A stretch of DNA of 64,000 nt from an uncultured Gemmatimonadaceae bacterium (lineage in GTDB: Bacteria; Gemmatimonadota; Gemmatimonadetes; Gemmatimonadales; Gemmatimonadaceae): assembly GCA_963716745.1 (NCBI GenBank), contig OY970320.1, positions 1,088,001-1,152,000 on the forward strand. The letters run 5' to 3'. A program made the translations under genes and the position numbers. Below the pieces are notes generated by a model, which saw only the letters and a list, made by a program, of their open reading frames with translations, did no database searches and was not told where the DNA came from. Positions within the stretch are counted from its first letter, which is position 1. Every line of letters begins with the position of its first letter. Of this stretch, positions 6,704 to 52,791 are shown piece after piece.

Positions 6704-6770
6704 CATCGCGTACATCATTTGCATTGTGTCAACGAACTGCTTGACAGGATTGACATGATGGACACGAATG
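6704..6770. repeat. Family G palindrome, copy B (degenerate left arm), overlaps the 3' end of GxxExxY
   Basis: Right arm ttgacaggattgacatgatggacacg. Confidence 0.75.
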
Positions 6771-7191
6771 CGGGCGCGCCGTTCATAACTCCGCGCGCGC
6801 GGATCCGGGGCAGACGGTGCTTGCGTTTGAACTGCAGTCGCTCGGCGCCGAAGTTGAGTAGCAGGCCGACCTCCAAGCCAGTAGCAGTCAAATAATGCAC
6901 GAGTTGCATCTCGTGCGCCTTGTTCAACACATCTACTGCCTTCAGTTCCAGGATCACGGTACCCTGCACCGTGATGTCGGCGATATACTCGCCGACGGAT
7001 TGACCCTCATACACGACGGCGATCCGTCGCTCTCCGTCGGATTGGATCCCGGCGCGCCGCAGTTCCAGTAGGAGAGCCCTTCGATACACGATCTCGAGGA
7101 ATCCGGGTCCGAGCGTGCGGTGGACCTTCATCGCGAGCCCGATAACGCGCCCCGTCAGCGGATCATCGTGCGCAGTCCCCATCATGTCCAT
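6715..7191 (-). CDS. GxxExxY protein (PD-(D/E)XK nuclease superfamily)
   Basis: GPGFLEIVY (GxxExxY), ADITV...ILELKAV, QLVHYLTATGLEVGLLLNFG. Confidence 0.93.
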   Translation of the reverse strand: MDMMGTAHDDPLTGRVIGLAMKVHRTLGPGFLEIVYRRALLLELRRAGIQSDGERRIAVVYEGQSVGEYIADITVQGTVILELKAVDVLNKAHEMQLVHYLTATGLEVGLLLNFGAERLQFKRKHRLPRIRARGVMNGAPAFVSIMSILSSSSLTQCK

Positions 7192-7271
7192 CGTGTTAAT
7201 CCTGTCGAGCTGTTTCTTAGTACCGGCGAGATAAGGGCTTTGACAGGATTAACATGATTGACATGATGGAC
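7175..7271. repeat. Family G palindrome, copy C, contains the GxxExxY start codon(s)
   Basis: catcatgtccatcgtgttaatcctgtc ... gacaggattaacatgattgacatgatg. Confidence 0.88.
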
Positions 7272-7836: not shown

Positions 7837-7859
7837 GAACGGACTCGAGCAGAGTCGCA

Positions 7860-7959
7860 GTTCCAATCATGTCAATCACGTTAATCCTGTCTAGTTGTTT
7901 ACTTGGACCGGTCGAATGAAGGCATGCGACAGGATTAACATGATTGACATGATGGGAAC
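7860..7959. repeat. Family G palindrome, copy D
   Basis: gttccaatcatgtcaatcacgttaatcctgtc ... gacaggattaacatgattgacatgatgggaac. Confidence 0.9.
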
Positions 7960-7980
7960 GGCGCCGCTAACCTCTGTACG

Positions 7981-9043: not shown

Positions 9044-9577
9044 TTATTTGTACGGCTTATATGAGAACTTCTGTCCGCCCACGCTGGCCTCGTACATCAG
9101 GCCGCCCTTCGCGACCGTGAACACCGCGACGCCGCTCGAATACTTCGCGTCGGCACTCGCACCCGCCTTGAGCGCCACAGCGCTCACCTGCGCCGCGAAC
9201 TCGAAGTCCCCCTTCTTGAAGGCCTCGAGCGACTTCTGCGTCTCGAAGAAGATGACCTCCATGTACGACTGTCCACCCAGCTGCAATCCGATCGTGATCT
9301 GGGTCATCGAGCACTCGCCGATCGCGTTGCCGCCCACGAGCAGTTCACCGTCGCCATGCGCACCACCGATGCCGATCGCGCCCTTGCCCACATTGGGCAG
9401 CACCGCGTAGCCCGCCGCCGAGCTGAAGAACTTGGCGATCCCCGGATCCGTCTTCTTGATGTCGGCGATCGCGGCCAGAACATCCGCGTGCTCATCGGCT
9501 CGCACGGTCTTGTGTCCGGCAGCCGCCATGAGTGGCAGCGACAGCACGGCGAGCGCGAGTGATTTCATTGTATGCAT
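9044..9577 (-). CDS. Ysc84/SYLF lipid-binding domain protein, secreted
   Basis: GYAVLPNVGKGAIGIGGAHG, GLQLGGQ and GGLMYEASVGGQKF motifs. Confidence 0.88.
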   Translation of the reverse strand: MHTMKSLALAVLSLPLMAAAGHKTVRADEHADVLAAIADIKKTDPGIAKFFSSAAGYAVLPNVGKGAIGIGGAHGDGELLVGGNAIGECSMTQITIGLQLGGQSYMEVIFFETQKSLEAFKKGDFEFAAQVSAVALKAGASADAKYSSGVAVFTVAKGGLMYEASVGGQKFSYKPYK

Positions 9578-9665
9578 TTCAAGCCTCCTTGGGTACTCGT
9601 TGAACTACGACCACATCCGAAGGTAGACGCGCAGCGACGATCTTGCAATTCCAGACGTGGGCAAT

Positions 9666-9856
9666 GCGCGTCTAGGCGCGAGTACCGCTGAAACAGCGCG
9701 TGTGGGCCGTAGTACCGCTTGAAAGGCGCGTATAGCAACGGAGCGTGTAGTACGGCATGGCGTGAGTTGGCGAGCGTACTACCAACTCACGCCCTGGAGT
9801 ACCATACGCTCAGTTGCCAGACGCGCCGTTTCAGTGGTACTAGGGCCTACACACGC
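9666..9856. repeat. ~160-bp palindrome, family P, copy 1 (core 9696-9856 plus an extra 30-nt unit at 9666-9695)
   Basis: gcgcgtgtgggccgtagtaccgcttgaaaggcgcgtatagcaacggagcg...cgctcagttgccagacgcgccgtttcagtggtactagggcctacac. Confidence 0.9.
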
Positions 9857-9860
9857 ACCT

Positions 9861-12561
9861 TCAGCGCAATCGTCCCAGTTTGTCGGGCGGCAATTCGGTC
9901 ACCACGATGGTCCGCGTGAGCTTCTTATCCCCCATCGTGAGGTGCACGGTGTACGTGCCCGGCGGCACGCGCACCAACTCCGCGCGGTCGGTGGGTTCGC
10001 CCAATCCGCGCGGACGCGGCCGCTGGCTCGACAGGTCCCACGTCACACGCTGCAGTCCCGGCACGCCCGATCCCGTGATCGTGCGCACGGTGTCGCCGTT
10101 CGCACTGGTGATGACCAACTTCACGCCCTCCGCCTGCGGCTCCTTGATATAGTAGGAGATCACGGCGCCGCGCGGCGGATTCTGCCCCATGAACTGCGCG
10201 CTGCCGCTCGACGGCAGCGTGTGATGCCACCGGAATTGGTACGCCGGCGCCACCTCGAACAGATGCACCGGCGCGCCGAGCAGCGAATCGCTGTACTCTT
10301 CCGCCGCGCCCACGTTCGCGATGTAGATCCCGCGGCCGTGCGTGCCCACCACCAGCTCGTTCTCGCGGTGCGCGATCGCGAGCGCTTCCACCATCACGTG
10401 CGGGAAGATCCTTGCCGAAGCGGCGCCACCGCTGGCCGCCATCGAGCGTGGCGTACACACCGTCCGATGTGCCGGCGAACAGCACGCGCGCGTTGCGCGG
10501 GCTCTCGATCACGATCATGCTCCCGCGATCGGCGGGCAATCCATTCACCAGCTCGGTCCACGTGGCGCCGAAATCAGTGGTGCGCCAGATGTGCGGCCGG
10601 TAGTCGTCGCGATGATGACAGTCGAGCGCCACCCACGCGGTGCCGTCGGCATGCGCCGAGGCCGCGATCGAGGAGACGAAGCAATCGGTCGGCGCGCCCT
10701 TCGGGAATTTTCCCGTGGTATTGATCCACGTGCGGCCGGTGTCTCGCGACACCCAGATATTACCGTCGTCGGTGCCGGTCCAGAGCACGGCCGCGCTGCG
10801 CGGGCTCTCGGCGATCGAGAAGATCGAATGATAACTCGTGCTCCCCACCTCCGGCGCCGGCTTATCGCGCGGCGTCTTGGTCATGTCGGGGCCGAGCGCT
10901 TCCCAATCTTTCCCGCCTTGCTTCAGCCGGAACAAGCGATTCGCGCCGAGGTACACCGTGCCCGAGTCGTGCGTGGAGATGAGGATCGGCGTGGTCCAAC
11001 CCCACGTGAACGCGTAGCCGCTCTCCGCGCCCGCATCGAGCGACGCAGGCACGATGTCATCGCGCTTGAACGTGCGCAGATCGAGTTTGGACACGTTGCC
11101 GTACTGCCAGCCCGAGTACACCGTGAACGGATCGCGCGGCGGCACCTGCACCCACATGCCGTCGCCGCCGTTCACCGGATACCAGTCGGCATCGTCGATC
11201 CCGCTCGAATCTCGCGACGCACTCGGCCCGCACCAGACGCCGTTGTCTTGCAGGCCGCCGCACACCTGATACGGCGCGAGCGAGCTATCCACGATCACGG
11301 TGTAGAACTGGCCGATGGGCAGCGGCATGTGCCACCACGCCTTGCCGGCGTCGTACGTAACGTAGGCGCCACCATCGTTGCCGAGGATGCGATGGCCCGC
11401 GTCGTGCGGATCCATCCAGAGCGCGTGGTTGTCCACGTGCACGTTGAACAACGATTCCGGCGCGAATGTGCGGCCGCCGTCCTTGCTCTCGAGCAGCGGA
11501 CTCGCGGCGACGAACACGTGCTGCGAATCGTTGGGGTCCACGAAGATCGCATCGTAGTAGTAGTGCGGCTCCGCCTGCAGATCGTTCACTTGCGTCCACG
11601 TGGCGCCGGCATCGGATGAGCGGAACACGCCGCCGAACGGACCCTGCCCCGGACCGGTGATGCCGCGATCCACTTCGATCATCGCGAACACGAGCTTGGG
11701 ATCCTGCGGCGAGATCGCGAGACCGATGCGGCCCATCTTATCGAAGGGCAATCCGTTCTTCTTCGCGGCGTCGGTGAGTCGCACCCACGTCTTGCCGCCA
11801 TCGGTGGTCTTGTAGATGCCGCTCCCCTTGCCAACTCCTTCCATATGCGCGCCGCCCCAGCGCAGGCGATGCCACGCCGCGGCGTAGAGCGTGTTGGGAT
11901 CCTTCGGATCCATCGCGAGATCCACGAAGCCGGTGGTGTCGTTCACGAAGAGCACGCGCGTCCACGTCTTGCCGCCGTCGGTGGTCTTGTAGACGCCGCG
12001 TTCATTGTTCGGACCCCAGAGGTGGCCGAGCGCGGCGACGTACACGATGTCGGGATTCGCGGGGTCGATGACGACACGGCCAATGGCCTTCGAATCGGCG
12101 AGGCCCATGTTCTTCCATTTCTTGCCGCCGTCCACCGACTTGTAGACGCCGTCGCCCCAGTACTGCGACCGAAGGCTGTTCTTCTCGCCGGTGCCTACCC
12201 AAATGATGTTGCTGTCGCTCGGCGCGACGGCGAGATCGCCGATCGTCTCGCTGCCGAGTCCGGAGGAGATCGAGCGCCACGTGACGCCGGCGTTCGTCGT
12301 TTTCCATACGCCGCCGCCGGCCGCGCCGATATAGAACGTCTTCGGCCGCGCCTCGGCGCTCGTGGGCACGGCGATCGCCGTGACGCGGCCGGAGTACGCG
12401 GCGGGTCCGATCGCGCGATAGCTGAAGTTCGAGAGGAACTTCGAGACAGAATCGGCAGTGGTGTCGGGAGCGGCCGCGGGAGCTTTCTTGGCGGCGGGCT
12501 TCTGCGCGGCGAGGGGGAGCGCGGCGAGCAGGACGAGCACGAGCGAGCGGGACGCGAACAT
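9861..12561 (-). CDS. Secreted BNR/VPS10 (sortilin-like) glycosyl hydrolase-like protein (frameshift ~10400)
   Basis: RAIGP...SGRV, multiple SxDGGxTW Asp-boxes, GTHGRGIY in the downstream frame. Confidence 0.85.
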
Positions 12562-12633
12562 CGGGGAGACTCTCAGGAAGGTGGCGAACAAATCCTACGA
12601 CGCGGCGCGGAGCTTCGCCAGAATCGCCAACCT

Positions 12634-12791
12634 GCGCGTGTAGGCCTTAGTACCGCTTGAGAAGCGCGTTTAGCAACTGAGCGTATGGTACGGCAGGGGC
12701 GTGAGTTGGGGTCCTTCCCACTCACGCTCCGCCGTACCATACGCTCAGTTGCCATACGCGCCGTTTCAGCGGTACCAGGGCCTACACCCGC
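12634..12791. repeat. Family P palindrome, copy 2
   Basis: gcgcgtgtaggccttagtaccgcttgagaagcgcg...cgcgccgtttcagcggtaccagggcctacac. Confidence 0.92.
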
Positions 12792-12842
12792 CGTTCATAG
12801 ATCTGCGCTGGCGAAGCTACAGTCACGTTCACAGTTTGAAGC

Positions 12843-15456
12843 ATGGCCCCGGCACACACTTCCCTCGCGGCTGCGCTCGCGGATCGCTACCGCATCGAGC
12901 GTGCGATCGGCGCCGGTGGGATGGCGACAGTCTATCTGGCGCGGGACCTCAAACACGACCGCGAGGTGGCACTCAAGGTGCTGCGCCCCGATCTCGCCGC
13001 GGTCCTCGGCGCCGACCGCTTCCTGAATGAGATCCGGATCACGGCACGGCTCAGCCACCCGCACATCCTGGCGCTCATCGACTCCGGCGCGGCGGACGGC
13101 TTTCTCTACTATGTACTCCCATACGTTCGTGGCGAGTCGCTGCGCGACCGGCTGCGCTCGGAGCGGCAGCTCAGTCTCGACGAGACGGTCCGCATCACCA
13201 CGCAGGTGGCCGCCGCGCTCGACTACGCGCACCGGCAGGGGGTGATCCACCGCGACATCAAGCCCGAGAACATCCTGCTGCAGGAAGGCGAAGCGATGCT
13301 CGCCGACTTCGGCATCGCGCTCGCGGTGAAGGAGGCCGGTGGCAACCGCCTCACGGAAACGGGACTCTCGCTCGGAACGCCGCAGTACATGAGCCCGGAA
13401 CAGGCGACCGGCGACCGCACGCTCGACGCGCGGAGCAATGTGTACTCGCTCGGTGCGGTCGTGTACGAGATGCTTGCCGGCGAGCCGCCGGTCTCGGGTG
13501 CCTCGGCGCAGGCGATCATCGCGAAGCTGCTCACCGAACGGCCCACCCGACTGCGGGTGACACGCGACACCGTGCCCGAGACGGTGGACGACGCGGTGCT
13601 CCGCGCGCTCGCGAAGGTGCCCTCGGACCGTTACGCGAGCGCCGGAGAATTCGCGGCGGCGATCGCCGCGGGCGTGGGCAAGCCTCGCGCGCGCGCGGGA
13701 ACTAGGCGGTGGCCGATAGTCGCGGCCGCGGCGCTGACCCTTCTCGCCGGTCTCGCGTGGTGGCTTGCGCGGGGGCCTGCGCGTGGTGAGCACACCGCCG
13801 CGTTCGCGTTGCGCGACCGCACGCAACTCACGTCGTCAGGACGCGCCGAGCAGGCGGCGATCTCAGTCCGACGGAAAAGAGATCGCGTACCTCACCTCGT
13901 CGTGCGGCGCAGCGGGATGCGCGAACGCAGTGGTGGTCCAGAATGTCGGTGAACCGGAGAGCCGCGAGCTGCTCACGGGACTCCAGGCTGTGAACAACAT
14001 CGAGTGGAGCCCGGACCGCCGGAATCTCCTCGTGACCGCGAGCGTCGGCGGGCGGCAGGGCGCATACCTCCTCTCCGTGTTCGGCGGCGCACCGAAGTTC
14101 CTCTCGCCTATCTGGGCGAGTTTCTTCGCCGGCGGAGATTCGATCATCATGGTGCCGCCGCAGGCGCTGAAGGGCGACTCCATGGTGCACCTGCTCATCG
14201 CCGGCCTCGATGGCGTGCCGCGCGACAGCATCGTGACCAACGGCCCGGTCGATTGGATCTTCATTTTCAACGTTCCCGGCACGACGCGCTTCGTGGCGCT
14301 CGCCACGCTCGGCCGGAACGCGGAGGTCCGCGTCATCGACCGGCAAGGCAATGGTGACGCAGCGCGGAGCCCTTCCGGGTGATCGACTTCCAACACGCCG
14401 CCGTGTGGAGGGCGTCGCGCGATGCGATCTGGATACAAATGCAGCAGGCCAACCACCCCGGACTCGTGCGCCTGCCGTTCGATGCGAAGAGCGGACGCAT
14501 CCTGCCGGCGATCGACACCGTCTATTTCGGAAGCAATGACCGGATTCGACGTCACGGCGGATGGCGGCAGCGTCGTCATGGCCGAGGACGCCGCCGAATA
14601 CGAGATCTGGGTCACGAGCGTGACCGACGCGCTGCACGGCCGCTTCGCGCCGAAGGATCGCGTGTGGCGATCCTCGGCCGTGCTCACCGCCCAGATCTCC
14701 TACGATGGGTCGCGGATCTTCTTCGTGAACACCGTGACCGGCGCATCGGGAAGTGAGCGGCTGCCCTACGTCCTTCGCGTCGCCGATCGCAGTGCCGCTC
14801 CGGTCGCGAGCCGCGGCGCATTCGTGAGGGCGTACTGGGCAGACTCCGTATCACTCGCCCTGGAGGAGCGCGACGGTCAGCACGTGCGTCTCGTGCTCGT
14901 GGACAGCCGAACCGGCCGGCGCAGCGAAGAGCGCCTGCTCGACGACTCGCTGATCGTCGACTACGCGCATCTCGGAGGAGGCGGCGGCTGGACCTGGACT
15001 CCGGCCGACGGCCAAAGCGTCCGCGTCTGGATGCCCGGCGACGCGGCGCCGCGCGTCTTTCCCAAGCCCGCGTGGTTCCTCGGCGTCGCCGGCCTGGGTT
15101 CGACGCTCGACGGGAAACGGATCGCCATTGGCGGCGTGCGTGCCGGCTTTGCCGATTCCCTGCGCTTCGACGTCATCGACGTGACGAGCGGCGCGGCGGT
15201 TCCGTGGGGAACCGTGAACATCTCATCGCTCAGCTCGACGTGTTTTCTCACGGATGGCTCGCTGCTCTTCATCGCGTTCGAGGCCGGCGGCCTGTACAAG
15301 CTGTACCGGGTGCGCAGTCCCGGCCGCGTCGAAGTGATCGGCACCGTGCCGCGCGCCGCGAAGGCGGTGGACGTTTCACGCGACTTGAAACGCGCGGCGG
15401 TCACGGTGCAGGAGGATCACGGTGATGTGTGGCGATGGAGCGTCGTGCGGCACTAG
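12843..15456 (+). CDS. Hanks-type Ser/Thr protein kinase with TM helix and TolB-like beta-propeller (frameshifts ~13866, ~14350, ~14538)
   Basis: GAGGMATVY, VALK, HRDIKPEN, DFG, GTPQYMSPEQ; downstream WSPD / SxDG propeller repeats. Confidence 0.85.
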
Positions 15457-15457
15457 G

Positions 15458-15618
15458 GCGCGTGTGGGCCTTGGTACCGCTGAAAGGGCGCGTATGGCAA
15501 CGGAGCGTATGGTACGACTCGGCGTGAGTTGGCACTACGTTCGCCCACTCACGCCCTGCCGTACCATACGCTCCGTTGCTATACGCGCTTCTCAAGCGGT
15601 ACTAGGGCCTACACGCGC
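15458..15618. repeat. Family P palindrome, copy 3 (opposite polarity to copies 1 and 2)
   Basis: gcgcgtgtgggccttggtaccgctgaaagggcgcg...cgcgcttctcaagcggtactagggcctacacgcgc. Confidence 0.92.
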
Positions 15619-15628
15619 GGTTCGGAGT

Positions 15629-18314
15629 TCAGCCATGCAACGCCGTTATCAGATCCACCCGAATGACTCGCCGCGCTGGTATGTAACAGGCCGCGAGCGC
15701 GACCACCGTGAGCAGCGCCGTCGTGAGCGTGAACGCGAGCGGGTCCATTGGACTTACGCCGTACAGCACGCCCGCGAGCAGGCGCGATGCCACGAGCGCG
15801 CCTGCGAGGCCGACCACGCCGCCCACGAGCGCGAGCTGCGCGCCCTGCCGGAGCACCATGCTCACCACGCGAGCGGGCGGCGCACCCAGCGCCAGCCGCA
15901 CGCCGATCTCCGTCGTGCGTTCGCCGACCATGTAAGAGACCACGCCGTAGATCCCGAGCGCCGACAGCACGAGCGCCGTCACGGCGAACGCCGCGATGAG
16001 CTCCATCGCGAACCGGCGCGCCGCCAGCGATGCCCACACGGTTTCGTCGAGTCGCTCCGCCGCGAACACGGGCAGCGCAGCGTTGATCGACTGCACCTGT
16101 TCGCGCATGGCGCGCTCCACCACGGCCAACTCGAATTGCCCGCGCAAGAAGATCGCGAGATGCTTGCCACGTTGCTGGTACAAGCTGGCGTACACCTGTG
16201 GAATGTCAGGGCGCGCCAGCGAGTCGGTGCGCGCGTCGCCGATGATGCCGACGACGGTGGTCCACGCCGGAGAAGACGGCGACAACTTCAGGCGTTGGCC
16301 CAGCGCATCCTGATCGGGCCAGTATGTTCGCGCCATGGCCTGGTTAATGATGGCCACCCACGGCGCCTGGTCGTCGTCGTGATCATTTAACAGGCGTCCG
16401 CGCACGAGCCGCATGCCGAGCAGGCCGAAATACTCGGGCGTCACTTCCGATGCGGTGAGGTACACGGGCTGGGCCATCGTCGCGGGCCGGTCCTCGAGCA
16501 CGACGCGGCGTACCGGCTGGTCCTGGTACGGATGATCGAGCGGCACGGCGCCGCCGCTGCCGACCGCGACGTCCTGAACGCCGCCGAGGCTCAGGGCGCG
16601 GCGGATCACCTCGCGCACGAACGGCGCCTGCGCCGCCGCCGTGGGATACAGATCCTCCTTCGGGTCGTTCGGGTACGGCAGCCGCGTGCGCACCACCATC
16701 ACACGCTGCGGATCGAAGCCCAGCGGCTCGCTCGTGAGCCGCCAGAAGCTGCGCACGAGGAGCGCCGCGCTGATCATCAAGCGTGAGCGACAGTGCGAAC
16801 TGCGCCACGACGAACGCCCGGCGGGCGCGCGCCTGCGTGCCTGAGCTCGTCGCGCCGCGGCCTTCCTGTTTCAGCGCGCCGGTGAGATTCATTCGTCTGA
16901 CCTGCAGCGCGGGCACGAGACCGAAGACGATCCCCGCCAGGAGCGACGCGCCGAGCGCGAAGCACAGCGCGACCCGATCGACTGAGATCTCGTTCAGCCT
17001 CGGCACTGCCTCGGGGATCAGGCCGGCGAGCGTGTGCTGCGCCGGAAACAGGAGCGCGAGCCCCAAGAGCGCACCAAGCATGGAGAGCACGACGCTCTCG
17101 GTGAGCAGTTGGCGGATGAGCCGCGATGGCCCGCCGCCGAGCGCCTGGCGCAGCGCCATCTCGCGCGCGCGCGCCGTGGCCCGCGTGAGCAGGAGATTGG
17201 CGACGTTCGCACACGCGATGAGCAAGACGAGCGCGACCGCGCCGAACAGGAACAATAACGGCTGGCGGACGTCGCCGTTCACCCACCGATCCAGCGGAAC
17301 GAGCCGCACGCGCCAGTCGCTCGCGGGGGGATAGTCGGCCGGATATTGGCGCCGTAGGTCTCGAACGAGTGCATCGACGCGCCGTTGCGCGTCCTCGACC
17401 GACGTGCCCGGCGCGAGGCGCGCGATGGCGCCGGGAAAGAGCGGAGTGCGCGTGGGGGGCGTCGTGAGCGGCGCGCCGGCGAATCCGAACGCGACCCACA
17501 CCTCCGTTCCGCGACCCTCTCGCGCGTGTTCCGGCGAATGGAATCCCGGCGGCATGACGCCGATGACACGATACGAGTCGGAGTCGAGTTGCACGACACG
17601 CCCGATGACGCTGGGATCGCCGCCGAACACGCGCTTCCAGAGACCGTCGCTGATCATCACTTGCTCATTGAATCCCGGCGTGCGATCCGCCGGATCGAAC
17701 GCCGACCCGAGCGCCGGCTTGACGCCGAGCAGGGAGAAATAATTCGGCGCGACGATGAGCATGCTGACTCTCTGCGCGCGATCCAATCCCGTGAGGTTGT
17801 TGTTGTCGTACCAGGTCGGCGACACGTATTGGAAAACGCCGGAGCGCTCGAGGTCCCACCACTCCGGCGTCGACATGCCGACGTCGCGCGCGCCGATGCC
17901 GGCGAGATCATCCTCGATGCGGACGAGCTGCCCGGACTGCGGGTAGGGCTGCGGCCGCAGCAGCGTGGCCTCGACGACGCTGAACATGGCCGTCGTGGTC
18001 CCAATGGCGAGCGCCATGGTGAGCACGGCGACGATCGTGAAGCCCGGCGAGCGGCGCAACATCCGCACGGCGAATCGCACGTCCTGCACGAGATGCTCGA
18101 TCCAGATACCCATACCGCCCCACTGGTCGCGGGCGATCTCTTGAACGAGTCCCGCGTTGCCGAACTCGCGCCGCGCGTTCGCCGCGGCGTCGGCCGGTGA
18201 TTCGCCGCGCGCGATGCGATCGGCCGCCGCCATCTCGAGATGCGCGCGCATCTCATCGCCGAGTTCATCGGTGCGGCGGTCACGCAGCCAGGGCACCCAG
18301 TCGGAAAGACTCAC
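15629..18314 (-). CDS. ADOP-type duplicated ABC permease (MacB/FtsX family; frameshift ~16780)
   Basis: [46 protein letters not shown] and PARR motifs; GTG start overlapping the PadR stop. Confidence 0.9.
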
Positions 18315-18670
18315 GGCTCCTCCGTGGCGGGCGGCAGCATGAGGCCGGCGATCACGTCGGCCATGGTGTTCCAGCGCGAGCGCTCGGCGTTGAGTCGCGC
18401 GCGCCCTTTGGTGGTGAGGCGATAGAGGCGAACGCGGCGTTTCGTGTCCGAGAGGCCCCACTCGGCCGCGATCGCGCGCTGCCGCACAAGGCGCTGCAGC
18501 GCCGGGTACAGCGAGCCGGTCTCGACCTGCAAGGCGTGGCCGGACTGCGCGCGGATCAGCTGGATGATGCCGTACCCGTGCGCCGGCCCCCAGCGCAGGG
18601 TCTGCAGGATGATGAGATCGAGGGTGCCTTGCAGCAGCTCGATGCGGGAGGTGGGCGTTCTGCGCGACAT
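18311..18670 (-). CDS. PadR family transcriptional regulator (ADOP-associated type)
   Basis: [31 protein letters not shown]. Confidence 0.92.
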
Positions 18671-18679
18671 GGGTTCACT

Positions 18680-18736
18680 AGGTAGACGGTCTACGTATTG
18701 CGTCTACATAGTGCGGATTGGATGCGCGACTGTCAA
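18680..18736 (-). promoter_or_regulatory. Putative sigma70 promoter and PadR operator
   Basis: Minus strand TTGACA(18736-18731)-N17-CACTAT, followed by GTAGAC half-sites including the palindrome GTAGACGGTCTAC. Confidence 0.55.
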
Positions 18737-18737
18737 G

Positions 18738-18888
18738 GCGCGTGTAGGCCCTAGTACCGCTGAAACGGCGCGTCTAGCAACTGAGCGTATGGTACGACAA
18801 AGCGTGAGTTGGAACGGCGCCACTCACGCCCTGTCGTACCATACGCTCAGTTGCTAGACGCGCTTCTCAAGAGGTACTAAGGCCTACA
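18738..18888. repeat. Family P palindrome, copy 4
   Basis: gcgcgtgtaggccctagtaccgctgaaacggcgcg...cgcgcttctcaagaggtactaaggcctaca. Confidence 0.92.
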
Positions 18889-18896
18889 GACTGCTC

Positions 18897-19647
18897 TTAA
18901 AGGAATTCGACTTGCCCTGTCTCAATGTGGTACATCGAGCCGACCATCATGATCTTCTTGTCTCTCTCGAGGCCCGCGAGCACCGGGCTGATCTTCCGGA
19001 TCTCGGCGAGCGTGAGCCTCACGTTCTCTGTGGCGACGGCATTCACGAAGTCGGGATTCTTCGCCCTGCGCTCGCCCTTGAAGTTCTTCACCGCGGCCAC
19101 GGCGGGGGTAAGTTTCTCCAGCATCTGCCGTGAGGTTGCCGAGCTTCGCGCCGTCGATCGCGCCCTTGATGGCGCCGCACGCCGTGTGGCCCATCACCAT
19201 CACCACCTTCGCGCCGGCCACCGCGCAGGCGAACTCCATGCTGCCCGCAAGATCGCGGTCCACGAAATTGCCGGCAATGCGCGCGTTGAACATGTCGCCA
19301 ATGCCCGCGTCGAGGATGATCTCGGCGGGCGCGCGTGAGTCGATGCAGCTCAGGATCACGGCGGCGGGATGCTGGCCGCCCGCGGTGATGTTCACATCGT
19401 GCAGATAGTCGCGATCCTGCCGCTCATCGCTCACGAAGCGTTTGTTCCCCGCCTTCGCGAGATCCACGATCTCCTGCGGCGTGAGCGCCGTCTGCCATTC
19501 CTTGGTGAGCGTCACCACCTTGCGCGGCTCGGCGGCGGGCGGCGCGGGGCACGGCTCCGACGGGCGGCATCCGAACAGGAGCGCGCCGGCGCCGGTGATC
19601 GCGCCGGCTCTCACGAATTGGCGGCGGTCCAACACATGCTGAGTCAT
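18897..19647 (-). CDS. Beta-class carbonic anhydrase with Tat/lipoprotein signal (frameshift ~19128)
   Basis: LSCIDSR, GHTACGA; DRRQFVR twin-Arg motif followed by LFGC. Confidence 0.88.
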
Positions 19648-19796
19648 GGGAGGAGCCCTCCATGGAGTGTGCAAGCTCGCGAGATCCTCCGTGGGATTCT
19701 TGCGGAGGTGATGTTCCGCTTTCAGCATACGCGACTCGCGAATAGCGCGCCAGCCGCACTCGCGCATCTTGGATCGTTGCAACATGTTCGATACGT

Positions 19797-20629
19797 ATGG
19801 AGACTCAACCGATGATCCGGTGGTCCGCCGCCGTGCTCGCCTGGCTCGGGTTCGCACTTCCGCGTGCGGCCATAGCGCCACCTGTAGTCGAGATCGTCGC
19901 GCGTGAATACGCCTTCGATGCGCCGGATTCGATCGCCTCGGGGCCCACAACGATCCATCTCGTCTCGCGCGGCCGCGAACAGCATTTCGTGTGGATCGCG
20001 AGGATCGCGAGCCCTCACACGTTGGCCGAATTCAAACAGACCCTCGGCAAGCCCGGCACACCGCCATGGATCACGCAGGTGGGTGGCGTGGGCACGATCG
20101 AACCGGGCGGCTCTGCGAGTACGACCATCGATCTCGCGCCGGGCTCGTACGTTCTCGAGTGCGACATGGAGGACTCGAAGGGAACGCCGCACATGATGGA
20201 GGGGATGATCCGTGAGCTCGTCGTCACCGCGGCGCGGAATGACGCGAAGATGCCGGCGGCCGACATTCGGATGGATCTCTCGGACTACGCGTTCACGCTG
20301 CCGACTCCGATCCATGCGGGCGCGCACGTGATCGAGGTACGCAACACGGGCTCGCAACCTCACATGGCGATGCTCTGGCGCTTGCACGCCGGCAAGACGC
20401 TCGCCAATGTGGTGAAATGGATGGACGCTGTCGCCGACCCGGGGCCGGCGCCTGTCACACTGCTCGGGGGAACGCCGGACATGGACCCTGGCGCTCTCCG
20501 TTGCAGCTCCCGGTGGAGCTCGCGGCGGGCAACTACGTGCTCATCTGCCTCGTGGACGATGTGCACGACCACAAGCCACACTATTCACACGGCATGGTGC
20601 GCGAGATCACGGTGGTTCACTCCTCGTAG
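19797..20629 (+). CDS. Secreted double cupredoxin-like protein (frameshift ~20495)
   Basis: Two repeats ending LAPGSYVLECxxxxxxxxPHMMEGM and LAAGNYVLICxxxxxxxxxPHYSHGM. Confidence 0.7.
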
Positions 20630-42243: not shown

Positions 42244-44460
42244 TTACGGCACCCAGATCGCCGAGCTGCCGCCCCCTGCGACCGCAAAGAGCGAGCCGTT
42301 CACGGGCAACGCGATGACGCCGTAGATCAGGTTGTACTGGGTGTAGAAACTCTTGTAGATACTCAGGGGGCTTGGAGGTTGGACCGACCAACTGTTGGTC
42401 GAGGGATCGTAGAGCTGGAACGCCACCCCCGAATCCGCACTCACCGCGTAGAGCCGCGCCCCCAGCGCGACGGCCGCCAATCCATTGCTTCCCATGGGCA
42501 TGGAGGGCTTGCTGGTCCAGCTATCGGCCGCTGGATCGTACGCTTCGACGACATTGTTGGGATTCGGGGACGCGTAACCGCCGAATGCGTAAAGGATCCC
42601 GTTGACCACGCCCGCGGCCAGGCCAAAGCGCGCGGTGGGTATGGAGGCTTTCGTCGTCCAGCTATCGGTGGACGGATCGTAGGCCTCGACGGTGCGGAGC
42701 AAGTTCGCTCCCTCGTAGCCCCCCACCGCGTACAAGATCCCGCCCACCACGGCGACCGCTAGCCCCCCACGAGCCGTGGGCATCGGAGCGAGCATCTTCC
42801 AGTGGTCGGCGGCCGGATCGTACGCGAAAAGGCTGTTACTCTCACGCCCGCCGTCATCGAAGCCGCCAACGGCGTAGAGGATGCCATTGATGGACGCCAT
42901 CGCCAACGCGGATCGATCCCCCGGCATGTTGGCTCGCTGGGTCCAACCATTCGTCGCCGCATCGTATGCATACAATTCATGGCCGACCGAGTCGGGACCA
43001 TAGTCGCCCCAGTCATACATCCCGCCCGCGACGTAGACGGTGCCATTGACCGACGCGGCCGCCATGTTGAAAAAAGGGCCCGGCATCTGCGCTTTCCTGG
43101 CCCAGAGGTGTTGCAGCCCGAATCGCACCGGGAAGCTCCAGGTCAGACTTCCGAACCGTGCCGTCACGACGGCCGTGCCGGTGGTCGCGGGAGCGGTCAG
43201 CGTCGCGACGTAGGTCCCGCTCCCACTGACCGGCCCGAGCGACCCGAGCGTCGTCGTCAGGATGATGCTGTCGGCCGGTTTCGAGATATAGTGGCCATAG
43301 TAATCTCTCAGCCACACCGTGACCTGGGTAGTTGAAGCGCCATCCGCCAGCACGGTGGAGTCCTCCGGCTTCGCGCCCGATGCCACTTGGTTCACCGGAC
43401 CGAGCGGCTGGTCCACGAAACGAACCGTACACGTGCTCGGCAGCTGAATTCCGCTCACCGTCGCCGAGACCCTGGCGCTACCCAGGGTGGCGGGCGGCGA
43501 GAGGATCGCGGTATAAGTGCCGTCAGCGTGATCTGTCACTCCTTGGATGAAGCCAGCGGTCGAATTGATGAGGAACGTCGCGCCACCGTGCGCGATCTGG
43601 ACGTTGGACGAATCACGAAGCGTCAACGTGATCAGCACCGGGTTCCCATCGAACCACGTCGAGTCCGGGCTCGCCGACAGCGTGGAATTCGCGACGGACA
43701 CCGAGCCCGTCGATTCCGTCGAGTCCGTCGAGAACGATTGTGTCACCGGTGCAGCGAGCGGAACGCCATTCACATCCTGGATCGCCTGCGATACGAATAC
43801 TTGGTAGCTGGTGAACTTCTCGAGAGGGCTGTCTGGATAGAACTCCGCACTGAGCCCATTCGGCCCACTCAGCCGTACCGAGCCAGCGACCGGTGCGGAT
43901 CCGCGCAGGAGGCCGAAGGAGGTCGGGCTTAGGGTGGCTGAGTCGATCGGGGCGCTGAAGACCGCCACGATCTGGGCGTTGAGCGGCACATCCTTCTTGC
44001 CGGGTGGCGGCGTGACTCGTACGACGAGGGGAGCCCTTCCCGCCGCGACGACCTGGAATCCAGTCACGGCGGCGCCACCGCCCGACAGGGTGACGTCCAC
44101 GAAGAGGGTGTCCCCTACGCTCGCCGTGACCGCCACCGGATCGAAGCCGCCGTCCACCAGGGCCACGGTGATGCTGTCCCCGCTGCGGGCATTCAGGATG
44201 GTGGCGCTCTGACCGCCGGGTACGGATGCGGGCGGGAGTGAAACCCACGCGGTAGCCACTACTACAGCGGCATTCGCGCCGCGACTCGGGCTTCGCGAGA
44301 CGCTTGCGCCGGCGGGTTGGCTCTCAGGCGACGACACGATGAGCGACGGCAGTTGGTTCACTCGCCGCTGCTGCGACGGGCCGCTGCTGTCAACGCAACT
44401 AGCCATTAGGGCGAGTGTGGCGACCGTCACCGTCGAGAGCCTTCGTGTCGGGCGATTCAT
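42244..44460 (-). CDS. Lipoprotein with bacterial Ig-like domains and C-terminal Kelch propeller
   Basis: MASC lipobox; VPLNAQIVAVFSAPID (Big_5-like), DGTYTAIL (invasin-like), repeated LYAVGG...AYDP...W Kelch units. Confidence 0.85.
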   Translation of the reverse strand: MNRPTRRLSTVTVATLALMASCVDSSGPSQQRRVNQLPSLIVSSPESQPAGASVSRSPSRGANAAVVVATAWVSLPPASVPGGQSATILNARSGDSITVALVDGGFDPVAVTASVGDTLFVDVTLSGGGAAVTGFQVVAAGRAPLVVRVTPPPGKKDVPLNAQIVAVFSAPIDSATLSPTSFGLLRGSAPVAGSVRLSGPNGLSAEFYPDSPLEKFTSYQVFVSQAIQDVNGVPLAAPVTQSFSTDSTESTGSVSVANSTLSASPDSTWFDGNPVLITLTLRDSSNVQIAHGGATFLINSTAGFIQGVTDHADGTYTAILSPPATLGSARVSATVSGIQLPSTCTVRFVDQPLGPVNQVASGAKPEDSTVLADGASTTQVTVWLRDYYGHYISKPADSIILTTTLGSLGPVSGSGTYVATLTAPATTGTAVVTARFGSLTWSFPVRFGLQHLWARKAQMPGPFFNMAAASVNGTVYVAGGMYDWGDYGPDSVGHELYAYDAATNGWTQRANMPGDRSALAMASINGILYAVGGFDDGGRESNSLFAYDPAADHWKMLAPMPTARGGLAVAVVGGILYAVGGYEGANLLRTVEAYDPSTDSWTTKASIPTARFGLAAGVVNGILYAFGGYASPNPNNVVEAYDPAADSWTSKPSMPMGSNGLAAVALGARLYAVSADSGVAFQLYDPSTNSWSVQPPSPLSIYKSFYTQYNLIYGVIALPVNGSLFAVAGGGSSAIWVP

Positions 44461-44480: not shown

Positions 44481-47400
44481 TTACCGTCCGCCACTCATCG
44501 TGAACCCTGCCCAGTAGAACGGATGAGCGGTACCCGAATTGCGCAGCATGGCGCGCTGGGCGAGGGCGAGGGCCTCCGCTTCTGACCGTCCTGCAACGAG
44601 CGACTTGTAGAACTCGGTCATGAGGGTCGCGGTGGCGCGGTCGTCCACCGGCCAGAGCGCGGCCAACACGTGCGCCGCACCCGCGGCATGGAACGCCTGC
44701 ACGAGCCCGACCCAGTCGTCACCAGCCGGCACATCTTCCATCGCCCCGGCACTCACCGCGGTCTGGCACGCACTCAACACCACGAGGCGCGCGCTGAGCT
44801 GCATCCCGAAGACGTCGTGCACCTCGAGCCGGCCGGCGGATCCGCTCGCGGGCGCCAGCTCTACGAACGAGAAGAGCGGATTATCCTGGTTCAGCACGCC
44901 GTAGGTCGCGAAGTGGATGATCCCCGCCCTTGGCGCGGCCTCGCGCAGGGCGCGCTCGGACGCCTGCGCACCGACCAACACTTCCGCCTTCGCGCCATAG
45001 AGCGTTTCGATAGCGGCCACCTCCAGCGCCGAACCGGGGAGAGCGTCCACGCGGGGCGCCAAAGCGAGCACGGTGGTCCCGGTGTACGCCGGCCGTTCGC
45101 GAAGTCGCAACCAGACCGAAGCCGAAGGCGCGTACGACAGGCGGTAACGTTGCACGAGGAACTCGTCGCCACGCAAAGTGCTCGGCAACGCCGCGAACGG
45201 GATGAAATGCAGCTCGGCGTGCGGCACGATGATGAGCGCCGTCTTACCCTCCAGCAGCCCAGATGCAGCAGCCGGCTGAATCAGGAGCGCGCCAAGGCGC
45301 CGGAGCGGCGCGCGCCAAAGGTCGGGCGGCGTCCGCTGTCCGGGCCTCACCATGACCGCGCGGCTGAAATCCACCAGCTTTGCCAATTCGTGGCGTGAGA
45401 CTCCAAGATCGATCTCCGCCAGCGTGTCCGCAGTGGCCACGAAGAGCAGCGTCGTGGAGTCCCCAACGAGGTATTCCAGTAGCGCCTCATCCGGGGCGAG
45501 CTTGGACCGGACGATGCGTGACGGAGCGATCTTGCCGCTCACGATCGCGGCGTACGCGGGGTGCGACTCGCCGATCTGCAGAAGAAGCTCTCCGTAACGC
45601 TGCTGCGCCTGCGCGAGGGCCTCGCGCACCGCGCTGGCCGATCGCTCGAGCGAGACCGGTCCGCGCAACACGCCCGCCATGCGCCCGCCCTCGAGTTCAC
45701 CGGTTAGTATGTCGACTTGCCGCCTCAGATCCTGCTCGCGAGCCACCAGCGCATCGCTCCCGCCTCCCCGAGCAGGGACCGAGACGCGCCCGCGCGCGAG
45801 AAGGTCGAGCAGTTCCCGCGCCCGCAGCTGTTCGCTCGCCTCGAAGGCCGCGCCCGTGTTTCCGCGCGCGACCTCCACGCGCGCGAGCTGGGCGTACACC
45901 TCCCTCTTGTCAGCCGCGAATCCCGCGCGCCACTCATCTACCAGCAGAGCGGCCGACATCCGTTCGATCTGACGGGTGGCTCCGCGCAATTCGATGGCGG
46001 CTTCATCCAACGCGTGCCGGCTTCGCAACGCGCTCCCGAGTCCGGCGTGGAGCTGCCACGCGATCGTGGGCGCCGTGGCGTCGCCAAGCTGCGCGAGTGC
46101 CCGTCGGTACAAAGATTCCGCGGCGAGCGGGAGTCGTTCACGCGTGGCGAGTTCCGCGAGCGCACCAAGCGTTGCCGCCGCGCTCGCCGGATCGCCGAGC
46201 GCGCGCAACAATGCCAGCGCGCCCTCCAAGAGCGCCCGCGCGGCCGCCGTGTCGCCCACCTGCGTCCGGAGAGAGCCGAGGAGGAGCCGTGTCAGCGCGA
46301 TCGCACGCGGATCGCCGAGCGCCTCTTGCGTGCGCAGCGCCAGCGAGACGTGCGAGATCGCGCCAGGGAGATCGGCGCGTGCTGCCAACAGGAGACCCAG
46401 ACCGCCCTCCGTCTCCGCCTGCCCTCGGGAGTCGCCGGCCGCTCGGAAGAGCCTGTTGGCGCGGAGGTATTGACGCTCCGCCTCGGGATATGCGTTGAAT
46501 TGCACCGAGAGGTCCGCCCGCGCTAGCGCGAGTGACGCGAGCAGGGCGGTCCGCTGTTCGGCGGAGTCACCGGCGGCGAGGTGCTCCGCGCGGCGCAACT
46601 GAATGAGCGCGCCCTGCAGGTTCCCCATCGCGGCGTGCGTGATGGCGATATCGCGGCGCACATCGATCTCGTCCGGCAGAGGGCCCGTCTCGCGGAACAC
46701 CGCAAGCGCCTCCATGAACCGGTCGAGCGCATGGTGATAATCGCCGCGTTGCAGAGCGAGCAGCCCGAGCGCGCGCAGCGCCGAGGCCGCATCCACACGA
46801 TTCCCGCGCTCGCCGTACAGCGACAGCGCGTCCCGATAAGACGACTCAGCACTCGCGTAGTCGCCCTCGAGGCTCGACAAATTCCCGAGATTGATCAGAT
46901 TCACCGCGGCCGGCTCATCGCGCCCCGCCGCCCGGTTCGAGGCGAGCGCTTCATTGAAAGCCCGGCGCGCCCGGCCGAGGTCGCCGAGCTGCTGCGCGAT
47001 CAGCCCCAGATTGTTCCCGTCCGCCGCGGCGCCGCGGAAATCTCCCGTGCGAAGGCGCATCTCCTTCGCAAGCGCGTAGAGATCGACCGCGCCGCCGAAC
47101 TCACCGCGGTCGGCCTGGATCGCGGCCAGTGTGCCGACGGCATTGCCCGCCGTTCGCCAGTCGCCCGTGCGCTCGGCGATCTCCCGTGCGCGACTTAGAT
47201 AGTGTTCCGCACTGTCCTGCTCCTCCGATCGGTAGTAACCGGCGCCGATGTTCCCGAGAGCGGCGGCCATCCCCGCCGAGTCGCCGATCTGCGCGCAGCG
47301 CTGATAGCTCGCACGCCAGTCACGGAGCGCAGCGGCGAGCCCGTCACGCCCAAGGGCATCATTGCCGGCAATGCGCAGGCTGTCCGCAGAAGCCTTGATG

Positions 47401-47681
47401 CGCCGATCGGCCAGCGGCCACGACGCGAAGCGCGCCACTTGTCGCATGGGGAAGGAGTCGTTCCACGCGCCGGCGAGCGCTTGAGCGAGCCGCTCGGCCG
47501 TGGCGAGCTCCGTTGCCGGCTCCGAGTCGGCGGCGGCGAGCGCGAGCGTACGGCGCAAGGAATCGCGGATCGCATCCGGTTGCGCACGCGCCTTGGCGAC
47601 GAGCGCGCTGTCCGGCGTGCGAGGCGGCCCCGTTCCCCCCGTGATCGCGAGGAGCACTGACAATGCACCGACCGTGATCAT
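44481..47681 (-). CDS. TPR-repeat CHAT (caspase/HetF-like) domain protein
   Basis: TPRs (ALGNIG, NNLG, LINLG); IVPHAELHFIPF, IIHFATYG, LVVLSACQT, LWPVDD, HPFYWAGF. Confidence 0.9.
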   Translation of the reverse strand: MITVGALSVLLAITGGTGPPRTPDSALVAKARAQPDAIRDSLRRTLALAAADSEPATELATAERLAQALAGAWNDSFPMRQVARFASWPLADRRIKASADSLRIAGNDALGRDGLAAALRDWRASYQRCAQIGDSAGMAAALGNIGAGYYRSEEQDSAEHYLSRAREIAERTGDWRTAGNAVGTLAAIQADRGEFGGAVDLYALAKEMRLRTGDFRGAAADGNNLGLIAQQLGDLGRARRAFNEALASNRAAGRDEPAAVNLINLGNLSSLEGDYASAESSYRDALSLYGERGNRVDAASALRALGLLALQRGDYHHALDRFMEALAVFRETGPLPDEIDVRRDIAITHAAMGNLQGALIQLRRAEHLAAGDSAEQRTALLASLALARADLSVQFNAYPEAERQYLRANRLFRAAGDSRGQAETEGGLGLLLAARADLPGAISHVSLALRTQEALGDPRAIALTRLLLGSLRTQVGDTAAARALLEGALALLRALGDPASAAATLGALAELATRERLPLAAESLYRRALAQLGDATAPTIAWQLHAGLGSALRSRHALDEAAIELRGATRQIERMSAALLVDEWRAGFAADKREVYAQLARVEVARGNTGAAFEASEQLRARELLDLLARGRVSVPARGGGSDALVAREQDLRRQVDILTGELEGGRMAGVLRGPVSLERSASAVREALAQAQQRYGELLLQIGESHPAYAAIVSGKIAPSRIVRSKLAPDEALLEYLVGDSTTLLFVATADTLAEIDLGVSRHELAKLVDFSRAVMVRPGQRTPPDLWRAPLRRLGALLIQPAAASGLLEGKTALIIVPHAELHFIPFAALPSTLRGDEFLVQRYRLSYAPSASVWLRLRERPAYTGTTVLALAPRVDALPGSALEVAAIETLYGAKAEVLVGAQASERALREAAPRAGIIHFATYGVLNQDNPLFSFVELAPASGSAGRLEVHDVFGMQLSARLVVLSACQTAVSAGAMEDVPAGDDWVGLVQAFHAAGAAHVLAALWPVDDRATATLMTEFYKSLVAGRSEAEALALAQRAMLRNSGTAHPFYWAGFTMSGGR

Positions 47682-48259
47682 GGACCCTTCGGATCGACCG
47701 AGAACTCGGTGAGTTCCGAGGGTATCCAGCGATTCCACCCGGTCTGCGCCTCGAGCTTCCAGAAGTAGCTCGTGCGAGGCTGGATATGAAGATCGGCGGG
47801 GATCGAGACGGACGTGTCTCGCGCCTGCGATTCGAAGATCGCGTTGCCGGCGTCGTCGAAGATGGTAACGCGATAGAGATCCGCGTACGGCACCGATGTC
47901 CAGATCAGCTGCGTCGGGCGGTGTACCGCCCCGCGCGGTGCGAGCGCAACGGGTACCACGGTGGTCGAGATCACTGGCTCGCGAGAGACCGGCACCGAGA
48001 TGGGCGGCGGCGCGGTATCGCGGCCCACCATCAGGAGGAGCGCAGCCGCTGCCCCGAGTGCCGCGGGCACGTACCAGCGCCGCAGCGGCGCTCGCTCGCG
48101 CGTCAGCCTCGACGCCGCGACCATATCGCCACGACAGGAATCGCAGTCCGCCATGTGCGCTTCGGCGGCCGCATGCTCCGCAGGCGGAAGCAGCCCGTCG
48201 GTGTAGGCGGCAAGTATCCCCGGGTCGAGATGGTCTCCCTCGCGATGCTCAGCGCTCAT
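47678..48259 (-). CDS. zf-HC2 anti-sigma factor with TM and extracytoplasmic domain
   Basis: LAAYTDGLL...EAHMADCDSC (HxxxCxxC), followed by a TM helix. Confidence 0.85.
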   Translation of the reverse strand: MSAEHREGDHLDPGILAAYTDGLLPPAEHAAAEAHMADCDSCRGDMVAASRLTRERAPLRRWYVPAALGAAAALLLMVGRDTAPPPISVPVSREPVISTTVVPVALAPRGAVHRPTQLIWTSVPYADLYRVTIFDDAGNAIFESQARDTSVSIPADLHIQPRTSYFWKLEAQTGWNRWIPSELTEFSVDPKGP

Positions 48260-52593: not shown

Positions 52594-52741
52594 ACCGCAA
52601 AGGGCGCGGTTGGTACCGCAAAGGGCGGGACTGGTACCGCTGAGGGCGGGATTGGCGTTGGATACTGCCGTTCCCAACGCTAATCCCGCCGTTAGCGGTA
52701 CCAGTCCCGCCGTCAGCGGTTCGACGCGCGCCGTTGGTGGT
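52594..52741. repeat. Palindrome built of three 21-nt units per arm
   Basis: accgcaaagggcgcggttggt / accgcaaagggcgggactggt / accgctgagggcgggattggc mirrored by gctaatcccgccgttagcggt / accagtcccgccgtcagcggt / tcgacgcgcgccgttggtggt. Confidence 0.82.
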
Positions 52742-52791
52742 CCACGACGCACGACTCGGTACTCACGGTTTTCGGGGTACGAGTCACGGAG

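Follow-up and report, generated by a model that had tools for sequence, protein, structure and literature searches.

The window analysed here is a stretch of 64,000 nucleotides from an uncultured Gemmatimonadaceae bacterium (contig OY970320.1), in which four long imperfect palindromes, labelled here the F1 family, lie between genes encoding a Vps10/BNR-repeat protein, a Ser/Thr kinase and a PadR-ADOP pair. A first-pass annotation, made from the sequence letters, had placed four such palindromes in this region, and they are indeed found at 9696-9856, 12634-12791, 15458-15618 and 18738-18888, with arms of 61-85 nt that are 79-87% complementary and loops of 9-36 nt. They are far beyond chance. 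A 14-nt arm motif (at most two mismatches) matches eight times in the window against 0.48 expected, a number reached by none of 100 shuffles, and all eight matches fall inside the four copies, the other 55 kb of the window having none; copy 1 folded as single-strand DNA has a z-score of -10.4 against shuffled sequences, and copy 2 folded as RNA has z-scores of -16.1 and -15.8 on its two strands. The features of the locus are given below, with reference to CAVTUD010000003.1 and CAVSYH010000003.1, two contigs from related metagenome assemblies with syntenic stretches about 90% identical to the window.

9044-9577, minus strand: SYLF/Ysc84 lipoprotein gene
9666-9701, plus strand: extra partial 30-nt sub-unit (GCGCGT..GTACCGCTGAAACA) abutting copy 1; real according to the inverted/repeat scan, the flanks of other copies being alike
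9696-9856, plus strand: copy 1 of the F1 family; TTGAAAGG arm on the left and TGAAACGG arm on the right; nhmmer score of 175.7 bits on the plus strand vs 126.1 on the minus strand
9857-12633, minus strand: interval 1, with the Sortilin-Vps10/BNR gene; the ortholog in CAVTUD010000003.1 is intact (909 aa), its stop 4 nt from the copy
9925-12591, minus strand: gene for the Vps10/BNR protein (Sortilin-Vps10/BNR-repeat gene)
12634-12791, plus strand: copy 2, 42 and 51 nt from the start codons of the divergent VPS10/BNR and kinase genes, between which it lies
12792-15457, plus strand: interval 2, with the Ser/Thr protein kinase; three open reading frames (ORFs) here, 869 aa and intact in CAVTUD010000003.1
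12843-15456, plus strand: Ser/Thr kinase gene
15458-15618, minus strand: copy 3, flanked by convergent genes whose stop codons are 1 nt and 10 nt away
15619-18737, minus strand: interval 3, with PadR and the ADOP duplicated permease; the whole block and one palindrome copy are absent from CAVSYH010000003.1
15629-18461, minus strand: ADOP permease gene
18311-18670, minus strand: PadR regulator gene
18738-18888, minus strand: copy 4; outer right end eroded, ..CTACAGACTGC in place of ..CTACACGCGC
18922-19950, minus strand: carbonic anhydrase gene

According to the gene calls around them, copies 1-4 stand in tandem, divergent, convergent and tandem contexts, respectively, in agreement with the first-pass annotation, and the genes between the copies are oriented -, +, -. 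Several of these genes are disrupted in the window: the kinase (12843-15456) is broken into three ORFs, the 3' end of the Vps10 gene (9861-10460) is frame-shifted, and the ADOP permease (15629-18461) extends across two overlapping frames, which cover TIGR03434 positions 1-430 and 431-801. The CAVTUD010000003.1 orthologs of Vps10, kinase and ADOP are intact (909, 869 and 943 aa), and the disruptions represent either assembly indel errors or pseudogenes.

When copies 3 and 4 are reverse-complemented, the alignment of the four copies has a mean column identity of 84%, and in all four a TTGAGAAG-type segment in one arm stands opposite a TGAAACGG-type segment in the other. The polarity previously read from this mismatch, with copies 1 and 2 facing one way and copies 3 and 4 the other, holds in this alignment. 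The copies end in GCGCGTGT...ACACGCGC, without the RYYYAAC/GTTRRRY ends of integron attC sites, as had also been remarked. The sub-unit abutting copy 1 is not peculiar to it, since the same ACCGCTGAAACA extension is seen in the flanks of other copies and the extra sub-unit is common to many of them.

The distribution of the palindromes was analysed by scanning a genome collection once with a 19-nt arm pattern and fetching about 1 Mb around the matches; the counts are lower bounds, and the comparison genomes are all metagenome assemblies, each covered in part. The pattern retrieved 77 loci, 69 of which belong to three Gemmatimonadaceae assemblies (CAVTUD01, CAVSYH01 and CAVVTZ01); the other eight are single matches in unrelated taxa, and an nhmmer profile detected no element at these eight loci. 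The profile of the four window copies gave 98 hit groups in the fetched DNA plus the window, 77 of which are full length (at least 120 nt): 40 in CAVTUD01, 23 in CAVSYH01, ten in CAVVTZ01 and four in the window, which represents a fourth genome. The window also matches the small contig CAVSYH010000016.1 (94.7% identity), a 10.4-kb contig spanning window positions 9863-19013, whose match to the window starts and stops beside palindrome copies. Since contig 3 of the same assembly has the locus at about 90% identity and without PadR-ADOP, while CAVSYH010000016.1 has the 94.7% version, the CAVSYH01 bin seems to hold two related strains.

The idea that this is an unnamed hairpin-type family finds support in the searches. 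No Rfam family reached its gathering threshold, the best being the mir-1781 microRNA hairpin model (43 bits vs 68), and collections of plasmids and phages gave no DNA match to the palindromes. In the literature, in a search that left subscription journals mostly outside, no description of these repeats was found, and none on palindromic repeats in Gemmatimonadetes.

Concerning the genomic context, a crude gene caller placed 34 of the 77 full-length copies between tandem genes, 23 between convergent and 15 between divergent ones, with three inside a call and two at a contig edge; by the table of the same caller, 41 copies overlap a called stop codon slightly or are no more than 12 nt away from one. 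Thirteen copies adjoin one of eight ADOP-like gene calls, several of which are orthologs of one locus. The first-pass annotation had argued that the copies are not simple terminators, and this stands, given the 15 copies between divergent genes and the lack of a T-tract: the T-run of an intrinsic terminator was not found after the copies, the consensus flank being CGTTAGAG, and a scan of window positions 9500-19100 gave no promoter-like site and three terminator-like sites, none of them inside a copy. In the 54 copies (out of 77) with both ends anchored no target-site duplication was detected; many of their flanks prolong the palindrome (AACG|...|CGTT) or add a further partial sub-unit. The shared inner motif CGGCGTGAGT is not enriched outside the copies, with 16 matches in the window vs 11.7 expected, a value reached by 16 of 100 shuffles.

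Three candidate sites of presence or absence of a copy were aligned and rejected, since a clean insertion was seen at none of them; their flanks are dissimilar, an unrelated palindrome occupies one of the sites in the other genomes, and no target sequence emerged from the comparison. In a site of this kind, CAVVTZ010000007.1 has an F1 copy between convergent genes (L035, 9912-10058), and in the matching slot (L006, about 455-512, and the L017/L070 region) CAVSYH01 and CAVTUD01 carry an unrelated palindrome roughly 75 nt long (GACGCTAGACCTAGACG... type). One intergenic slot is thus taken by different hairpin repeats in different genomes. A further copy, in CAVTUD010000002.1 (L047, 9988-10285), contains a tandem array with a 41-nt period, in which an inner arm segment is repeated four to five times on one side; this demonstrates that arm sub-units can expand by slippage.

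The fetched DNA also contains gene-bearing copies. Three nhmmer hits are split, with complete left and right arms 480-510 bp apart, one in each of CAVTUD01, CAVSYH01 and CAVVTZ01, and these three copies are probably at one orthologous locus. The insert between the arms contains a single ORF of about 137 aa, no other gene being found there, which matches PF05635 (23S rRNA intervening-sequence protein; E 4e-11 and 5e-13) and TIGR02436 (four helix bundle protein; E 9e-13 and 7e-15). A profile of five loop-type proteins matches PDB 2gsc (XCC0516 from Xanthomonas; E 4.7e-5), which would be the solved Xanthomonas S23p pentamer mentioned in PMC4990558; probing the PDB with a single loop-protein sequence gave no match, nor did a tblastn search of the loop protein against plasmids. 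The orthologs of the loop ORF differ mostly at third codon positions (6:6:28 and 17:14:58 differences at the three positions), which implies that the loop protein is under purifying selection.

Two further PF05635 paralogs, 54-60% identical, are present in the fetched CAVTUD01 DNA, and both lie between long inverted repeats of other sequence, with 45-nt arms in one case and arms of more than 200 nt, made of 37-nt tandem units, in the other. Both of these arm types recur as gene-less intergenic palindromes of about 155-280 nt, four of the first type and at least three of the second. All three PF05635 paralogs in this DNA are hence at the tip of a hairpin, and each hairpin has its own gene-less family. 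A literature search, with subscription journals mostly outside its reach, retrieved no paper linking PF05635 or GxxExxY genes to dispersed palindromes.

Some observations concern the surroundings of these loci and hairpins of other types. Two solitary F1 arms, in the same orientation (L012, 9962-10061 and 11358-11455), lie within 4 kb (2.3-3.8 kb) of the F1 element with the IVS-protein gene; the ORFs between and beside them (117, 116 and 539 aa) have no Pfam match. In the window, a GxxExxY / PD-(D/E)XK_3 gene (6715-7191, minus strand; TIGR04256, E 2.6e-39) has inverted arms on either side (6735-6767 and 7182-7214), which are those of a different dispersed palindrome, about 100 nt long; whole copies of the latter are located at 7179-7269 and 7856-7964, and more occur in many fetched segments. 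The layout of this locus, with a gene in a hairpin, is that of the IVS-protein loci. A further palindrome, upstream of the BipA gene (52594-52741), has 68-nt arms of three 21-nt tandem units that are 81% complementary, and next to it a 39-nt fragment (52729-52767) is 90% identical to the 37-nt unit of the hairpin of the third IVS-protein paralog.

The sequence evolution of the F1 copies was analysed on ortholog pairs. Between CAVTUD01 and CAVSYH01, 141 genes differ by 3.9%, 2.0% and 12.2% at codon positions 1, 2 and 3, respectively, and in 17 ortholog pairs of copies 10.8% of the sites of the element core differ, which is near the neutral rate. In the same 17 pairs, 68 of the 158 core columns are invariant vs 23.6 expected (and no more than 38 in any of 2000 simulations). 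These unchanged columns make up boxes that are identical in both arms, namely GCGCGT-N-TAGGCC, AGTACCGC, GCGCGT-N-T-R-GCAAC-N-GAGCGTATGGTAC and GGCGTGAGT, with free-running spacers between them, and the arms are composed of sub-units of about 30 nt.

Few changes are compensatory. In 31 ortholog pairs, 196 single changes break or make a pair and 77 keep it, and 15 double changes keep the pair vs 43 others; RNAalifold gives a covariation term of 0.09, with a compensatory change in 7 of 37 pairs. Pairing within copies amounts to 87.2%, vs 84.3 ± 0.3% when partner arms are shuffled between copies. Local duplication was considered and rejected, as copies at most 10 kb apart are barely more alike than distant ones, with differences of 14.5% vs 15.3% in CAVTUD01 (p = 0.11), 13.9% vs 16.1% in CAVSYH01 (p = 0.015) and 19.9% vs 22.6% in CAVVTZ01 (p = 0.13). 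These data, together with the divergence of arms and paralogs and the sense-strand pair counts given below, describe an old expansion followed by vertical inheritance, with selection acting on sequence blocks in both arms and not on a perfect stem or on one RNA strand.

The asymmetric bulge of the window copies, which had been taken as a conserved mark of polarity, is not a feature of the family. Among 61 copies with both arms typed, 37 have the TGNAAC-type in both arms, 17 are asymmetric as in the window, one has the TTGAG-type on both arms and six are of other kinds; the CAVTUD010000003.1 orthologs of window copies 1 and 2 are themselves symmetric. Moreover, the columns of the bulge segment differ in 5-10 of the 17 CAVTUD01-CAVSYH01 ortholog pairs and are the fastest-changing ones of the element; the bulge is therefore a free spacer between conserved boxes. 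The orientation of a copy also flips in place. At one orthologous site (CAVSYH010000018.1 / CAVTUD010000001.1) the two copies show 28 mismatches when aligned collinearly with their flanks vs nine when one is flipped; the loop is plainly inverted and the outermost 15 nt or so are collinear, and such a combination is what an exchange between the arms would be expected to produce. Two weaker cases (30 vs 22 and 28 vs 21 mismatches) bring the flagged pairs to 3 of 27.

As for the arrangement of the copies along the genome, spacings between neighbours in CAVTUD01 clusters range from 753 to 5205 bp. The spacing between copies is that of one gene or operon, and no unit of about 3 kb, as suggested by the four window copies, emerges. 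The copies are clustered, with 19 of the 40 in CAVTUD01 having a neighbour at 3.5 kb or less vs 9% expected (p = 3e-10), a figure slightly biased, as neighbours within 10 kb are found without an exact pattern match.

The comparison of relatives revealed two cases in which gene blocks bounded by copies are present in one genome and absent from another, as the first-pass annotation had led one to expect. In the first, window copy 3, PadR-ADOP and copy 4 correspond to a single copy in CAVSYH010000003.1, the block being present in CAVTUD010000003.1 and CAVSYH010000016.1; the single copy is a patchwork of copy-3 and copy-4 states, with an intact outer end that copy 4 lacks. In the second, one copy in CAVVTZ010000007.1, beside a YceI gene, corresponds to three copies and two genes (peptidase S9 and glucose/sorbosone dehydrogenase, GSDH) in CAVTUD01 and CAVSYH01. 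A dedicated system for shuffling cassettes, also proposed at first pass, left no sign: a scan of 62 window ORFs (15 + 47) gave no integrase, transposase or recombinase family, the genes between copies face either way, and the three window intervals have no near-identical copy outside orthologous places in the roughly 1 Mb of fetched DNA, the other matches being distant paralogs of 64-77% identity. Gene order is otherwise collinear in CAVTUD01. Every pair of palindromes is at once a direct and an inverted repeat, and the DNA between its members can therefore be deleted or inverted by ordinary homologous recombination.

The copies recall several known systems. PMC4990558 describes the intervening sequences (IVSs) of 23S rRNA as stems of terminal inverted repeats whose loop contains an S23p ORF; RNase III excises them, and their origin is debated. 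According to the same paper, ORF-bearing and ORF-less IVSs coexist, and they are called selfish. The likeness to the IVSs with an S23p ORF (known from Leptospira, Coxiella, Xanthomonas and Brucella) consists in a long stem with a small PF05635 gene in the loop, as in the split F1 copies, the four window copies corresponding to the ORF-less form. However, IVSs are located in helix 25 or 45 of 23S rRNA, whereas F1 copies lie between protein-coding genes; an Rfam scan of the window detected a tRNA as the only RNA gene, and all four copies are between protein-coding genes and not in 23S rRNA. F1 arms are also longer (about 70 nt vs the 28-bp stem in Coxiella), and the ORF-less form of F1 is dispersed in dozens of copies.

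The second system is that of REPINs and RAYTs (Bertels and Rainey 2011). This work (PMC3116915) reports three REPIN groups tied to three RAYT genes by flanking association; REPINs, like F1 copies, are hairpin-forming inverted doublets, extragenic, vertically inherited and without target duplication, and in both cases each repeat group is tied to its own flanked gene, three to three, with clusters near the gene (PMC3116915). The correspondence of three arm families to three PF05635 paralogs is a likeness in logic to REPIN-RAYT and not membership. The gene flanked by F1 arms is a PF05635/TIGR02436 one and not a Y1/HUH transposase (RAYT), and the F1 arms of about 70 nt are made of 30-nt sub-units instead of paired short REP palindromes, no transposition intermediates being seen.

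The ERIC/IRU, Yersinia YPAL and Neisseria Correia elements are imperfect intergenic palindromes of 100-170 bp, often 3' untranslated, that can form long hairpins as RNA and serve as landmarks for recombination and typing. Palindrome size and intergenic placement are common to them and F1; no sequence relation was found, however, and F1 is without a TA or other target duplication and has a coding member. Lastly, integron attC sites are also imperfect palindromes, thought to act when folded, with unpaired bases setting their polarity, and bound single-gene units; unlike them, F1 copies have the ends GCGCGTGTAGGCC ... GGCCTACACGCGC (both in the window copies and in the consensus of all 77) with no RYYYAAC/GTTRRRY, the window contains no intI, the genes are not co-oriented and the unpaired segment of F1 is hypervariable.

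On the whole, we lean towards reading the F1 copies as gene-less members of a lineage-specific family of IVS-like hairpin elements, vertically inherited and acting as substrates of recombination, with a protein that reads the boxes, and assign to this a rough probability of 0.55. According to this reading, the gene-less copies would relate to the gene-bearing one as REPINs do to the RAYT gene, or as ORF-less to ORF-bearing rRNA IVSs. They would have spread long ago by a route leaving no target duplication, and the conserved boxes would be kept because they are read sequence-specifically, most likely by the loop-encoded protein. Today, the copies sit at fixed intergenic sites, usually just past a stop codon, and are inherited vertically, their visible activity being recombination: exchange between the arms of a copy flips its inner part in place, and the copies bound gene blocks that differ between relatives and so mark points of gene gain or loss. 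In a transcribed copy, the roughly 70-bp stem would form, by reference to the rRNA case only, double-stranded RNA of the type cleaved by RNase III in rRNA IVSs. On this view, it is the gene-less copies that would stem from, or rely on, the copy with the gene, as opposed to a palindrome having acquired the gene. We place the window copies in no known family; their behaviour resembles that of IVS elements, to which they may be related, and their organisation that of REPIN-RAYT systems.

Several points weigh against the reading of F1 as gene-less IVS-like elements. The protein is a four-helix bundle without known catalytic activity able to move DNA, and the gene may have landed in the loop of a pre-existing palindrome, which would reverse the relation of parent and derivative. 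The evidence linking gene and palindrome comprises three paralogs, all from a single assembly, and the orthologs that one of the three has in two other assemblies, and the first gene-bearing locus was fetched because of its arms. No movement is seen, the closest paralogous copies in CAVTUD01 differing by 4.9% with a median of 15.3%, and no clean empty site or target duplication was found (three candidate sites; 54 of 77 copies anchored). The two arms of one copy have 15.1% of non-Watson-Crick positions vs the 15.3% median difference between copies; the arms of one copy are thus as different as separate copies, which implies little ongoing homogenisation or selection for a perfect stem. An RNA-strand signature is missing as well, with 89 G-U and 89 A-C pairs counted for the sense strand in 34 copies of tandem context. 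The single copy in CAVSYH010000003.1 is no simple one-crossover hybrid, and gain and loss of the block are indistinguishable. Lastly, all data come from metagenome-assembled genomes, and the window has several frame-disrupted genes; long genes of some relatives are interrupted in the same manner.

[quoted passage not shown] The family is in fact dispersed, non-coding, intergenic and MITE-sized, copies differ at some sites between the more distant CAVVTZ01 and the other genomes, and a transposase could lie outside the covered part of the genomes; yet the 54 copies with both ends anchored have no target-site duplication, conservation runs along the whole arm and not only over short terminal repeats, the window has no transposase, and the only ORF between split arms is that of PF05635. 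A chance passenger, in particular, does not explain a gene-in-hairpin pattern that occurs with three unrelated arm sequences, and we regard a MITE origin as unlikely. The position of many copies close to stop codons (41 of 77), the 57 copies in tandem or convergent contexts and the very stable folds would agree with host RNA elements, i.e. hairpins of 3' untranslated regions (RNase III sites, exonuclease blocks or factor-dependent terminators) kept for gene expression, with the repetition and the IVS link as secondary; comparable rRNA IVS stems are cut by RNase III, according to PMC4990558. This explanation, too, appears improbable: the equal numbers of G-U and A-C pairs on the sense strand (89 vs 89 in 34 copies), the 15 of 77 copies between divergent starts, copy 2 included, the lack of a T-tract and of promoter-like or terminator-like sites in the window copies, the conservation of sequence boxes with hardly any covariation, and the flipping of copies in place without loss all speak against it.

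The presence or absence of gene blocks raises the question of whether the copies are dedicated recombination sites, at which an integron-like or invertase-like enzyme encoded elsewhere would insert, excise or invert those blocks. The two cases in which copy-genes-copy equals a single copy in another genome, the clustering in CAVTUD01 (19 of 40 copies, p = 3e-10) and the fact that the single copy in CAVSYH010000003.1 is no simple one-crossover hybrid would fit such a system. On the other hand, the window holds no integrase or recombinase gene and the copies no attC-type ends, the copies enclose genes of both orientations, CAVTUD01 otherwise keeps the gene order, and the intervals are without a near-identical copy elsewhere in about 1 Mb of fetched DNA. 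General homologous recombination suffices, the palindromes being direct and inverted repeats of each other; a dedicated enzyme seems very unlikely.

A broader proposal, which we put forward only tentatively and consider doubtful, is that PF05635 proteins, and perhaps also the GxxExxY PD-(D/E)XK ones, are dedicated partners of hairpin repeats, each paralog recognising, maintaining or spreading its own palindrome in the manner of RAYTs with REPINs but without being a transposase, the 23S rRNA IVSs being copies that landed in rRNA helix tips. The PF05635 four-helix-bundle proteins are relatives of Avd, the accessory protein of diversity-generating retroelements (DGRs), and PF05635 is cited in a DGR review. 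To the PF05635/TIGR02436 proteins, which occur widely and are often multi-copy, no function has been assigned since their discovery within rRNA IVSs; a paralog for each hairpin, together with gene-less copies, gives a handle on the function of the protein and on the origin of IVSs. Besides, it is at these repeats that closely related Gemmatimonadaceae differ in their gene blocks, and genome assemblies are likely to break there; CAVSYH010000016.1, for one, ends at copies.

Two other window genes, unrelated to the palindromes, adjoin each other on the minus strand: the one at 44481-47738 encodes a 1085-aa protein with TPR and CHAT domains, and the one at 42244-44460 a 738-aa Kelch/Big_5/Invasin_D3 repeat protein.

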